Source: a virus (lineage: Duplodnaviria; Heunggongvirae; Uroviricota; Caudoviricetes). Taken from it: a stretch of 14,584 nucleotides of DNA. How positions within the stretch are numbered: position 1 is the stretch's first letter; every line of letters starts with the position of its first letter. Shown in pieces: positions 12,295-13,076 of the stretch. The stretch lies in the IMG/VR virus record IMGVR_UViG_2877291059_000002, one strand, 5' to 3'. The translations under genes were made by a program, and so were the position numbers. The notes beneath the pieces are model-generated. The model was not told where the DNA came from and made no database searches. It saw nothing but the letters and a program-made list of their open reading frames with translations.

Positions 12295-12828
12295 GCATAT
12301 CCCCTCCTGTTATCTGTCCCCTTAAAAAATAAATCACTTTAAAAATCAGTTAAGTAATAATTTTTCGCCATAAAAAGCACCGGCGGCATTTACATGAAAA
12401 TCACCAAAAGTTATATTTATTTCAAGCCAGAAACATCGCGCCCTTACACAGGGCTACATAAATCAGTCGTACGGCGCGACTTAACCCGCCGCAAAATGCT
12501 CTTTAACAACCTGGAGCTTTACAGTGTCAATGACCTGTTTAGACCCTTACACGTAAACGTGCTGTATCATCGGGTACGATCCGGTCGATGAGAGAGTATC
12601 CCCGCGCGAGAGCGAGAACGGCGTGAGAACGGGCAACACTGGCAGGAAGTTGGCGCTGACCAATACAGGGAATGTTTTGGGGTGTGGTGAAGGGTTCATG
12701 GACGGGAATATGTCGCACGTAAAGCGGCGAGGCCCGAGGGACTATTGCTGAAGATAAGTAGGCCGAATCGGGTCGAAATGGGTCTCCCACCTGCCACATC
12801 GCCAAAGCATTTCCGAGAAAGGACGGTA

Positions 12829-12857
12829 TTGACTGCGTGTGATGTCGGGGCTATATT
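12829..12857 (+). promoter_or_regulatory. Sigma70-type promoter candidate (TTGACT, 17-bp spacer, TATATT)
   Basis: Near-consensus -35 and -10 hexamers with optimal spacing, in the position where a lambdoid PL would lie. Confidence 0.45.
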
Positions 12858-12863
12858 GGAAGA

Positions 12864-12940
12864 ACACCTCATAAAACGGGTGTCGGGATTGCTACCCCGC
12901 TGACAATCGAGGCGATACAGACGCGCCAGCGTCTTTTTTT
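12864..12940 (+). ncRNA. Candidate short transcript or leader RNA (~77 nt) from the 12829 promoter to a hairpin plus U7 terminator
   Basis: Predicted start about 12864; hairpins ACACCUC/GGGUGU and the terminator AGACGC-GCCA-GCGUCU followed by T7 at 12919-12940; no homolog recognised. Confidence 0.25.
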
Positions 12941-13076
12941 GTATCGACATACACGCACATCTTATCAATGGTGGGCTGTATGGGGCCGACTTCAGTCGGG
13001 CTGGTTCCCTTGATTGCCAGTTGTAGCAACCCTGTACAGTCCACCGCCAGCGAGCTTGCTACCTCCTGCGGTGGTT

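Follow-up and report, generated by a model that had tools for sequence, protein, structure and literature searches.

The immI operon of phage P1 involves RNase P processing and Rho-dependent polarity, and its C4 RNA is reportedly cut from the operon transcript as a stable RNA of ~77 nt. In P1 and P7 the elements of immI are arranged in the order a1 b1 - c4(a' b') - a2 b2, and b2 lies on the ribosome-binding site of the gene that follows (Citron & Schuster 1990, 1992). In the immunity system of P4 (CI RNA, seqA, seqC), a processed small RNA lies between two complementary target regions of the same transcript, and its action is premature termination of transcription of the replication operon; the upstream region, seqA, is structurally similar to IsrK (PMC4825925). 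In Gifsy-1, the locus isrK-orf45-anrP was described (Hershko-Shalev et al. 2016, PMC4825925). Its promoter PisrK drives transcription of the anrP operon (PMC4825925, Table 1A); most transcripts terminate as the small RNA, while a fraction reads through and represents the mRNA of an antirepressor-type gene. IsrK supplied in trans raises anrP translation about 140-fold and an anrP transcriptional fusion 8-fold; pairing was shown between G28/G31 of IsrK and C162/C159; and the C4 region gives rise to a stable processed RNA, STnc1160 (PMC4825925). Both IsrK and STnc1160 are abundant in Gifsy-1 lysogens, in 17 of 17 conditions (PMC7067206).

The DNA analysed here (the window) is a stretch of 14,584 nt from an integrated lambdoid phage. 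Its segment 12829-13126 is very probably an RNA-controlled antirepressor switch of the P1/P7 immI and Gifsy-1 isrK type, preceded at 12297-12828 by an early-left control region without N. The features are listed in Table 1.

Table 1. Features of the early-left region and of the RNA module in the window
Feature	Position	Strand	Evidence or remark
Intrinsic terminator	12266..12292	+	8-bp stem with 6 G-C pairs, then TTTTCTTT
Candidate PL, TTTACA-N17-TATATT	12389..12417	+	Promoter match; overlapped by operator-like 19-bp pseudo-palindrome 12397-12415
Hairpin GCCCT-TACAC-AGGGC	12440..12454	+	Sole match in the window
boxA TGCTCTTTAACAA	12497..12509	+	Sole exact match in the window (TGCTCTTTAACA at 12497-12508)
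Orphan nutL / N-leader remnant	12497..12813	+	phi80 leader homologue without N after it
isrK promoter TTGACT-N17-TATATT	12829..12857	+	Hexamer pair match
IsrK small RNA	12864..12940	+	Rfam RF01394 isrK, full-length match and predicted fold
IsrK hairpin 1	12864-12883	+	Predicted fold
IsrK hairpin 2	12885-12898	+	Loop carries site a1
IsrK site a1 TTGCTAC	12889-12895	+	In loop of hairpin 2
IsrK site b1 CAATCGAGG	12904-12912	+	Single-stranded
IsrK terminator	12919-12940	+	AGACGC-GCCA-GCGTCT (12919-12934) into T7 run 12934-12940
C4-type antisense RNA	12964..13051	+	Rfam RF01695, 76.4 bits, gathering cut-off 45, positions 1-87 of 87
Counterpart of Gifsy-1 orf45	12968..13126	+	ORF from conserved ATG in C4 5' stem
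C4 segment b' CCTTGATTG	13008-13016	+	In 10-12-nt loop
C4 segment a' GTAGCAA	13023-13029	+	In junction
Site a2 TTGCTAC	13056..13062	+	Downstream target of C4 a'; covaries with a1 and a'
CAATCAC heptamers	13079..13106	+	Four perfect copies between a2 and b2
Site b2 CAATCAAGG	13107-13115	+	Overlaps Rha Shine-Dalgarno AAGGAGG (13112-13118)
Rha-family gene (Phage_pRha domain)	13127..13543	+	Pfam PF09669, E = 3.2e-32

Membership in the isrK family is established by the match of segment 12864-12939 to the whole Rfam model (positions 1-77 of 77; 61.8 bits, gathering cut-off 50, E = 1.9e-11). The 5' end of IsrK lies 7 nt past the -10 hexamer of the isrK promoter, and 12 other phage loci, as well as Gifsy-1, have a hexamer pair equally far from IsrK. 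The original prediction had located this promoter, two potential stem-loops and a GC hairpin followed by seven T residues; its coordinates for promoter and hairpin are correct, and the two stem-loops correspond to hairpins 1 and 2 of IsrK. The ~77-nt plus-strand RNA that it proposed, from about 12864 to the T-run, is, judging by the Rfam match, a member of the IsrK family, and its predicted start coincides with that of the match. In the 1.8-kb region, 3 promoter-like and 5 terminator-like sites were observed, versus 2.2 ± 1.7 and 2.0 ± 1.2, respectively, in shuffled sequences, so that consensus matches are not above chance; the decisive evidence for the promoter/terminator unit is the Rfam isrK match, not the bare consensus matches.

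As a further possibility, the original prediction had pointed to cis-acting RNA elements such as the HK022 put sites, which would act as antiterminators close behind the promoter. The put RNAs are two-stem structures of about 70 nt acting on the transcribing polymerase, which they render resistant to terminators with no protein factor involved, and two stem-loops right after a promoter, in a lambdoid prophage without N, would suit this suggestion. However, both hairpins belong to IsrK, and their loop and 3' flank covary with C4 and not with features to be expected of put, and only isrK and C4 match credibly in Rfam, even at E <= 5; furthermore, the hairpins have their own terminator, giving a discrete small RNA in Gifsy-1 (PMC4825925). 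No evidence for put-type or N-type antitermination was found in the window, while homologues document RNA-RNA pairing gating translation at the Rha ribosome-binding site; a put-type element is extremely improbable.

The C4 antisense RNA, the core regulator, was overlooked in the original prediction. It starts 24 nt downstream of IsrK and, like IsrK, is matched over its full length above the gathering cut-off. The predicted fold is a 17-bp outer stem around two hairpins, with a minimum free energy of -42.6 kcal/mol (z = -3.96, versus -1.47 for the minus strand). The Rfam c4-a1b1 model (RF03163), which does match Gifsy-1, F723 and APSE-1, gave no match in the window even at E <= 5, and in 12200-13200, scanned against Rfam at permissive settings, other RNA families scored no better than chance (bxd_1, E = 0.11; Acido-1, E = 2.3).

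The Rfam families, their order and their spacing agree between the window and Gifsy-1: a promoter, IsrK with its terminator, C4/STnc1160 with a conserved ATG, sites a2 and b2, and an antirepressor-type gene. Residues G28/G31 and C162/C159, numbered on the Gifsy-1 sequence, correspond to a1 and to a' of the C4 element. The predicted fold of the read-through leader (z = -3.9) contains the duplexes a1-a' and b1-b' and corresponds to 'structure A' of Gifsy-1, the predicted inactive cis fold there likewise having the middle of IsrK base-paired to the C4 region. The pairing sequences themselves are different, namely, TTGCTAC / CAATCAAGG in the window and TTGGCGT / ATCACCGG in Gifsy-1. The position of the module also differs: the Gifsy-1 module comes directly after the gene of the Q antiterminator, whereas in the window the module follows cI, restriction-modification genes, the probable PL and nutL, at the place of N, and the upstream neighbours of IsrK are the restriction-modification genes and the PL/nutL remnant, not a Q-like antQ. 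The gene isrJ, located downstream in Gifsy-1, had no match in the window, and the output gene is frameshifted in the window, unlike in Gifsy-1.

Similar to immI of P1/P7, the module has the order a1 b1 - c4(a' b') - a2 b2, and its b2 likewise falls on the ribosome-binding site of the following gene. In the P1-like phage RCS47, both Rfam matches were found between pacB and ant, followed by a 73-codon ORF of the size of icd, and the string GGAGGCTGCCATTATGGCTACT, comprising the Shine-Dalgarno sequence, ATG and first codons, is common to RCS47 and the window. The downstream gene carries a Rha domain in the window and is represented by icd and ant1/ant2 in P1/P7, which belong to the same functional class; the host phage of the module is lambdoid and integrated, unlike P1/P7.

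Covariation was analysed in a set of 13 phage loci, among them a P1-like phage and Gifsy-1; the loci compared include Stx phages, SfV, the P2-like P88, the P1-like RCS47 (between pacB and ant) and APSE-1. C4 follows isrK at a distance of 22-44 nt in Gifsy-1 and in all 12 other phage loci, and the gene after C4 is Rha, Ant, derepression or icd. Since the b loops differ in length, explicit complementary runs and permutation of duplex energies were used instead of a column-wise covariation count. In the window, the duplexes of a' with a1 and with a2 have 7 bp each, and those of b' have 9 bp, both with b1 (one G-U) and with b2 (all Watson-Crick). About 7 a-types and about 11 b-types were found among the loci, each matched inside its own locus, reminiscent of P1/P7 heteroimmunity. 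The summed cognate duplex energy is -46.4 kcal/mol, versus -31.6 ± 1.6 kcal/mol for permuted pairings, and none of 20,000 permutations reached the observed cognate fit; the energies of a' versus a2 are only weakly specific. The three pairing partners thus covary across the 13 loci. An O157:H7 prophage, H6437, is 96.9% identical to the window across the region (PA2 and VT2phi_272 also reach 97%), and its a1/a'/a2 are TTCTCAC / GTGAGAA / TTCTCAC versus TTGCTAC / GTAGCAA / TTGCTAC in the window, which is a coordinated change. In all 13 loci, b2 is Shine-Dalgarno-proximal and lies directly upstream of the start codon of the downstream gene.

Most likely, C4 blocks translation of Rha, and the short IsrK titrates C4; transcription, termination, C4 processing and the direction of regulation are inferred here from the homologues. 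Transcription would begin at about 12864 from a promoter that has no recognisable repressor operator. Most transcripts would end at the terminator, giving the ~77-nt IsrK, and a minority would read through; the original prediction had offered a small RNA or a terminator to be bypassed as alternatives, and in Gifsy-1 both hold at once (PMC4825925). The read-through RNA would include the C4 element, which in P1 is excised as a stable antisense RNA. Its exposed segments a' and b' would pair with a2 and b2 just upstream of Rha, and, because b2 covers the ribosome-binding site, C4 would hold Rha untranslated. IsrK, having the same two sites (a1 and b1), would compete for C4, in cis in the read-through leader and in trans as free small RNA, and an excess of IsrK would titrate C4 and allow Rha to be translated. 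The authors of the Gifsy-1 study explained activation by orf45 translation and alternative leader folds, not by a processed C4 repressor, and IsrK toxicity became stronger, not weaker, when the orf45/STnc1160 region was expressed constitutively (PMC4825925); the direction given here for each regulatory step is therefore tentative.

Instead of, or besides, the ribosome block, C4 might act like the P4 CI RNA with seqA/seqC, pairing on nascent transcripts and causing premature termination. The layout, with two sites flanking the RNA, is the same; the Gifsy-1 authors call IsrK a structural homologue of P4 seqA and consider that STnc1160 may affect termination like CI RNA, and the 8-fold increase of the transcriptional fusion with IsrK in trans agrees with this (PMC4825925). 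In the window, however, the downstream site covers the Shine-Dalgarno sequence, and the location of b2 in 13 of 13 loci suggests that C4 acts primarily on translation; in Gifsy-1, translation is also affected far more strongly than transcription (PMC4825925). A P4-like action of C4 is considered unlikely, and a block of Rha translation is preferred.

The original prediction had found no plausible ORF in 12297-13076. This holds for 12297-12828, where ORFs had no Pfam match and at best a marginal PHROG match (E about 1e-3, minus-strand ORF 12696-12968), but not for the ORF starting from ATG 12968 in C4, which joins Rha in the same frame, with no stop codon in between. The counterpart in Gifsy-1, orf45, begins at the same ATG, has 45 codons and overlaps the ATG of anrP with its stop, a case of translational coupling, in contrast to the in-frame fusion in the window. 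The sequence from 12968 onward could thus simply be protein-coding, giving a long Rha isoform with its N-terminal 53 residues derived from C4. The profiles PHROG 995 and 821 cover the N-terminal extension, several phage records annotate CDSs straight through the C4 sequence, and orf45 is translated in Gifsy-1 (PMC4825925). The reading frame is likewise open in 7 of 13 loci, but these represent only 2-3 lineages; in other loci the ORF has 14, 15, 39, 45 or 64 codons or is out of frame, and, owing to this variation in length, the peptide is not conserved. Moreover, ATG 12968 has no Shine-Dalgarno sequence, the sequence follows the RNA covariance model with compensatory stem changes, and its variable positions track complementary sites outside the ORF. 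A long Rha isoform as the sole explanation is very unlikely, and the segment is better described as C4 RNA.

The product of the Rha gene is similar to PHROG Rha-like and anti-repressor families. In comparison with the 215-aa gene of phi191 and H6437, it is shortened to 138 aa by a frameshift, caused by a 1-nt deletion near 13503, and an IS follows the frameshifted gene. Each CAATCAC heptamer duplicates the 5' half of b2; relatives have one copy, and a scan of genome contigs gave no match for the expanded heptamer. Among complete E. coli genomes, no match to the window exceeded 97%, and its left 9 kb was covered by none. With the Rha frameshift, the IS and the heptamer expansion beside the ribosome-binding site, the RNA module looks decayed in the window, and with the output gene in this state the switch may have lost its function here.

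The segment 12297-12828 is probably the early leftward control region of the phage, with a candidate cI-controlled PL and a phi80-type nutL/N-leader. The terminator 12266..12292 closes the cI / methylase / endonuclease transcription unit, forms the left edge of the gap 12297-13076 and has the same position as Timm of mEp234. The site 12389-12417 is probably PL, controlled by cI, as suggested by a single 19-mer, AAATCACCAAAAGTTATAT (12397-12415), similar to ATATAACCAAAGGTGATAT (8999-9017) of the cro-cI intergenic region; PL of HK225 and phi80 lies at a similar distance upstream of the common boxA. The isrK promoter was also considered as PL; in a repeat search and a 15-mer comparison with the cro-cI region, the sole convincing shared 19-mer covers 12397-12415, not PisrK, and this idea was therefore dropped. 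The promoter 12829-12857 marked in the original prediction is not PL, and 12389-12417 fits this role better.

The location of the region at PL/OL and nutL, as proposed originally, is confirmed by homology: 12497-12813 and the nutL/N-leader annotated in phi80 are 95% identical (300 of 317 positions, ungapped, versus 698-1014 of M11919), and 12676-12807 shares 91.7% identity with the N leader found in mEp234 / 933W-type phages. The homology starts exactly at the first base of boxA, 12497, and stops 36 nt before the position of the phi80 N ATG; the 17 substitutions versus phi80 are split 7/6/4 across codon positions, and phi191 has lost 105 nt here, both in keeping with the lack of a plausible ORF. 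The boxA sequence is the rrn/P22-type consensus. The hairpin 12440..12454, whose stem is identical to that of lambda boxB, lies upstream, not downstream, of boxA, and at least one match to GCCCT-N5-AGGGC was also found in 63 of 200 shuffles, which makes this match weak by itself.

The lambdoid PL-nutL-N regions of phi80, 933W and mEp234 occupy the same position after cI and the immunity-region terminator, but there N follows the leader, whereas in the window the isrK promoter follows. In agreement with the original prediction, no N gene was recognised: tblastn with N of phi80 and of the mEp234/933W type, run on the window and on 27 kb of the O157 relative, gave nothing better than E = 0.37, and none of the gap ORFs was recognised as N in Pfam and PHROG scans. 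The two genes after Rha in the O157 relative are, by Pfam and PHROG, Kil and a family of no known function, not N. Near and downstream of cro, no nutR-like boxA was detected within 2 mismatches. As far as the sequence indicates, the RNA module occupies the place of N, and the N gene is missing from the stretch. Eru1-type Stx phages were also reported to be without N (PMC8044961).

This position directly downstream of the probable PL and an exact boxA is consistent with another role of the IsrK terminator, namely, mainly as a promoter-proximal gate of the early-left operon (Rha, kil, gam, recT, exo), overcome by antitermination on PL transcripts, which carry the rrn-type boxA, while transcripts of the isrK promoter do not. 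Complexes of boxA and Nus factors, however, mainly oppose Rho-dependent terminators, and the IsrK terminator is intrinsic. In the O157 relative, kil, gamL, recT and exo come next in the same orientation, and the annotation shows no other obvious promoter; the absence of N from Eru1-type phages also accords with such a gate. Sy et al. describe IsrK as the product of an antitermination-regulated promoter. Against this, no homologue of N and no nutR-like boxA downstream of cro are present, phi191 has a 105-nt deletion within the leader, and the same terminator is found in other contexts (the nin region, the P2-like P88, the P1-like immI and APSE-1). Being kept across these contexts, the terminator belongs to the module, not to PL control, and its function mainly as a gate of the early-left operon is unlikely.

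The IsrK-C4 switch of the window is an unannotated yet ordinary member of a described family: both RNAs belong to curated families, and their mechanism was already worked out in P1/P7 and Gifsy-1. Annotation of IsrK or C4 was absent from all RefSeq/GenBank phage records inspected, in several of which they are hidden within over-long CDSs. Many Shiga-toxin phages carry this cassette ahead of their Rha/Ant genes, among them phages related to those of the O104:H4 and O103:H25 outbreaks. The O157 prophage, which is nearly identical and has changed in step at its three a-sites, represents a natural compensatory-mutation experiment.

A further proposal, held to be decidedly unlikely, concerns the N-less ('Eru1'-type) Stx and Stx-like prophages, in which N would have given way to an antirepressor cassette under RNA control, located directly after PL and an orphan rrn-type boxA. 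If so, boxA-modified PL transcripts, made only after loss of cI, and constitutive isrK-promoter transcripts would be handled differently by the IsrK terminator and C4, and the IsrK:C4 ratio, not N, would set the threshold for early-left expression and self-reinforcing induction. The interchangeable a and b sequences would then represent RNA 'immunity groups' deciding cross-induction among co-resident prophages. This could bear on the reported lysogenic instability of Eru1 phages and on the release of Shiga toxin, and, if the cassette replaces N as the early-left gate, it would provide a testable handle on the ready induction of these phages.

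The gap of 780 bp at 12297–13076 lies between the terminator of the cI unit and a gene of the Rha family. The closest relatives, at 96.9% identity across 842 nt, are E. coli prophages of the short-tailed lambdoid type, Stx-converting or related, for example those of O157:H7 strains, PA2, VT2phi_272, phi191, TL-2011c and P13374. The gene order in the E. coli O157:H7 prophage relative H6437 is cro (opposite strand), cI, methylase, endonuclease, gap, Rha, kil, a gene of unknown function, gamL, recT and exo. Accordingly, the gap occupies the position of OL/PL and nutL of lambda, as originally claimed, and also of its N. 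RNA annotation in the gap is absent from every record inspected, and no papers tying IsrK or C4 to Stx phages were found in a literature search; both RNAs were noted side by side in a study of APSE. Rha-domain proteins of types Eru6/7/9, located beside cI in Stx phages, have been described with the small RNAs unmentioned (PMC8951638); they appear to be the genes with isrK and C4 upstream in the compared phage loci L005, L006 and L012 (Rha/Ant next to cro–cI).

The promoter TTGACT-N17-TATATT (12829–12857), two stem-loops after it, and a G+C hairpin with T7 (12919–12940) had been noted from the sequence, and all are present. As bare consensus, promoter-like sites show no excess over chance (3 observed versus 2.2 ± 1.7 in shuffles). 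The Rfam scan that had been proposed gave two full-length matches above the gathering scores (50 for isrK and 45 for C4), namely, isrK RF01394 with 61.8 bits (E = 1.9e-11) and, beginning 24 nt beyond it, the C4 antisense RNA RF01695 with 76.4 bits (E = 8e-14). The predicted small RNA, starting near 12864 and about 77 nt long, agrees with the IsrK model, while C4 is a regulator overlooked in the original prediction. A stable fold is obtained for C4 on the plus strand (−42.6 kcal/mol, z = −3.96) but not on the minus strand (z = −1.47). A full-length match to the STnc100 sRNA was also found at 4345–4550, minus strand (159.6 bits).

Positions of features of the cassette and of sequences bordering or crossing it (window coordinates except in the last row)
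Feature	Sequence	Position	Remark
Terminator		12266–12292	ends the cI / Eco57I-like methylase / PstI-BsuBI-type endonuclease unit; left border of gap
PL candidate	TTTACA-N17-TATATT	12389–12417	
isrK (RF01394)		12864–12939	
a1	TTGCTAC	12889–12895	loop of IsrK hairpin 2
b1	CAATCGAGG	12904–12912	single-stranded part of IsrK; 9 bp with b', one G-U
C4 (RF01695)		12964–13051	
b'	CCTTGATTG	13008–13016	large C4 loop
a'	GTAGCAA	13023–13029	C4 junction; complementary to a1 and a2
a2	TTGCTAC	13056–13062	heptamer identical to a1
b2	CAATCAAGG	13107–13115	overlaps Rha SD; 9 bp with b'
Rha-family gene	SD AAGGAGG	ATG 13127	right border of gap
CDSs crossing isrK terminator/C4		L003 2140–2976; L005 2272–3105; L006 2272–3294; L012 2272–3105	compared phage loci

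Two segments of C4, a' and b', are complementary both to sites in IsrK (a1, b1) and to sites before the Rha gene (a2, b2). The window was compared with 12 further phage loci with 68–97% similarity to 12820–13135, including several Stx phage types, SfV, P2-like P88, P1-like RCS47, the aphid-symbiont phage APSE-1 and PhiR12_1, as well as with the Salmonella prophage Gifsy-1. Across the loci, a occurs in about seven versions and b in about eleven, the three partners match within each locus, and b2 is located directly upstream of the start codon of the next gene in 13/13 loci. Duplex energies of b' are −12.2 kcal/mol for cognate and −7.4 kcal/mol for non-cognate IsrK, and −13.9 and −8.0 kcal/mol, respectively, for the downstream site. 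When C4 was permuted among loci, the observed sum was reached in 0/20,000 cases (−46.4 versus −31.6 ± 1.6 kcal/mol): the three partners covary. The clearest single case is H6437, near-identical to the window, where a1/a'/a2 are TTCTCAC / GTGAGAA / TTCTCAC, three substitutions coordinately repeated at three places. In the predicted fold of the full read-through leader (12864–13135; z = −3.9), a1:a' and b1:b' are paired.

Rfam isrK, followed 22–44 nt on by Rfam C4, is present in all 12 phage loci and Gifsy-1, with a promoter-like hexamer pair at equal distance upstream of IsrK in each compared locus. The next gene is annotated as Rha, antirepressor or derepression protein; in RCS47 it is a 73-codon ORF of icd size, the match there being located in immI, between pacB and ant. 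The string GGAGGCTGCCATTATGGCTACT is common even to the P1-like phage. In the window the cassette follows cI; elsewhere it is found behind cro, within the nin region, beside Q and in P1 immI. These varied positions indicate that it moves as one unit, extending from the −35 hexamer to about codon seven of the next gene.

Deposited CDSs of SfV orf37 and several 'regulatory protein/Ant' genes of Stx phages cross the isrK terminator and C4, and the profiles of PHROGs 995 and 821 include an N-terminal extension matched by the translation of the window's C4 region (12968–13126). Either over-annotation is widespread here, or the long in-frame isoform is real. In phi191 and Stx2_EH1965 (L013 3567–3650; L011 3232–3315), a match to sRNA-Xcc1 (RF02221) was found 3' of the Rha/antirepressor gene, at the position of isrJ in Gifsy-1; in the window this position is lost to the IS.

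The architecture of the cassette is that of immI in P1/P7, the details of which include RNase P processing and Rho polarity. In the published outline of immI, synthesis of the antirepressor Ant is repressed by the c4 antisense RNA. The layout is also that of the Gifsy-1 isrK locus, in which anrP is transcribed from the isrK promoter, the read-through mRNA remains translationally silent, anrP translation rises ~140-fold when IsrK is provided in trans, and a stable processed RNA, STnc1160, arises 3' of IsrK (PMC4825925). IsrK and STnc1160 are both abundant in Gifsy-1 lysogens in 17/17 conditions tested (PMC7067206). The published orf45/STnc1160 region of Gifsy-1 (L017 34131–34316, minus strand) matches the Rfam C4 model in full (69 bits). 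When residues are counted from the 5' end of IsrK, the 'first AUG' of orf45 (A107) coincides with the ATG conserved in the 5' stem of C4, and the 45-codon ORF from it finishes on the anrP start. Since the compensatory pairs G28–C162 and G31–C159 link a1 (G28/G31) with a' (C159/C162) within the Rfam match to C4, the experimentally proven helix 'b-I' is the a1:a' pairing of the P1-type scheme.

By this analogy, C4 would cover the Rha ribosome-binding site via a2/b2, and IsrK would be a decoy competing for C4. In Gifsy-1 a1/a' double mutants repression was not restored (224 and 327 units versus 4; PMC4825925), as expected if a' must also pair with unmutated a2; the incomplete rescue is consistent with the decoy model, with a2 as the third partner. 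The authors' own model differs in emphasis, invoking alternative folds and orf45 coupling, and extra STnc1160 increased IsrK toxicity, at odds with a simple repressor role (PMC4825925).

In tests of sequence, structure and context the element agrees with both IsrK and C4/immI. Only accessory features differ: a separate orf45, isrJ and an adjacent Q are all absent, and a Rha gene is present in place of icd/ant. The element is thus a previously unannotated member of the already known IsrK + C4/immI kind. The idea of a terminator to be read through for Rha expression was right in spirit. C4 and the pairing logic account for the locus without any new mechanism. Nothing was found in favour of an element of the HK022 put type, which had also been suggested.

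Upstream of the cassette, 12497–12813 is identical at 300/317 positions, ungapped, to 698–1014 of the phi80 record M11919, annotated with the nutL regulatory signal at 661–938 and the N start at 1050, and 12676–12807 shares 91.7% identity with the N leader, located between nutL boxB and N, in phages of the mEp234/933W type. The phi80 homology begins exactly at boxA TGCTCTTTAACA, the sole exact boxA match in the window, and ends 36 nt short of the phi80 N start point; the isrK −35 hexamer lies 15 nt further. A conserved coding frame, which would speak against the original prediction, was not seen in this leader: substitutions relative to phi80 are spread over the codon positions without bias (7/6/4), and 105 nt of it are missing from phi191. 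In agreement with the first reading, neither the window nor 27 kb of the O157 relative encodes an N of either type; lacking both N and nutR, the locus does not belong to the N/nut kind. Because the phi80 leader is present, N and a boxA downstream of cro were not found, and Eru1-type Stx phages are reported without homologues of N, CII and CIII (PMC8044961), the N cassette is considered replaced by the RNA module, with an orphan nutL left behind.

The PL candidate appears to fit PL better than the originally flagged isrK promoter. In phi80 and HK225, PL stands at a similar distance from boxA, and the candidate is overlapped by a 19-bp pseudo-palindrome resembling one in the cro–cI intergenic region, of which none is found at the isrK promoter. 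The interval from the putative PL to boxA contains two small hairpins, 12440–12454 (lambda boxB stem GCCCT/AGGGC, TACAC loop) and 12465–12481; at the corresponding place, phi80 and HK225 carry another sequence able to form a hairpin.

In the window, a 1-nt deletion near 13503 shortens Rha to 138 aa versus 215 aa in phi191 and H6437, with loss of the C-terminal part, which matches anti-repressor PHROGs. Similarity to relatives stops at 13917, the start of an IS, whose ORF with an rve domain is located at 13926–14432, minus strand. Between a2 and b2 the heptamer CAATCAC is perfectly repeated four times, forming with the b2 copy a tract (13077–13112) directly 5' of the Rha ribosome-binding site; it is single in phi191, H6437 and ten IMG/VR contigs, and no tract of at least three copies was found in a scan of the GTDB species-representative genomes. 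For each unit, 6 nt of the C4 loop are available for pairing, and the extra 21 nt leave the 12968 ORF in frame with Rha. The Rha output gene is probably dead in the window; IsrK and C4 may still be made.

In the region 9775–12247, a frameshift (~10920–10956) splits the gene of the Eco57I-like methylase, and next to it the PstI/BsuBI-type endonuclease gene is intact, with 99.4% identity to its H6437 counterpart; the presence of a restriction enzyme in the absence of its methylase is unexpected and could reflect a sequencing error or a silenced operon. Several tandem duplications, exact or nearly so, were found in 3048–6395: 406 nt ×2 (3577–4391), 194 nt ×1.9 (5123–5483, 100%), 184 nt ×2 (5895–6262, 100%), and a 40-nt unit doubled at 3048–3128, with a reverse-complemented doublet at 6315–6395. 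They look like IS-related rearrangement of a decaying prophage.

In N-less Stx-type phages the cassette may have taken over the gating role of N.
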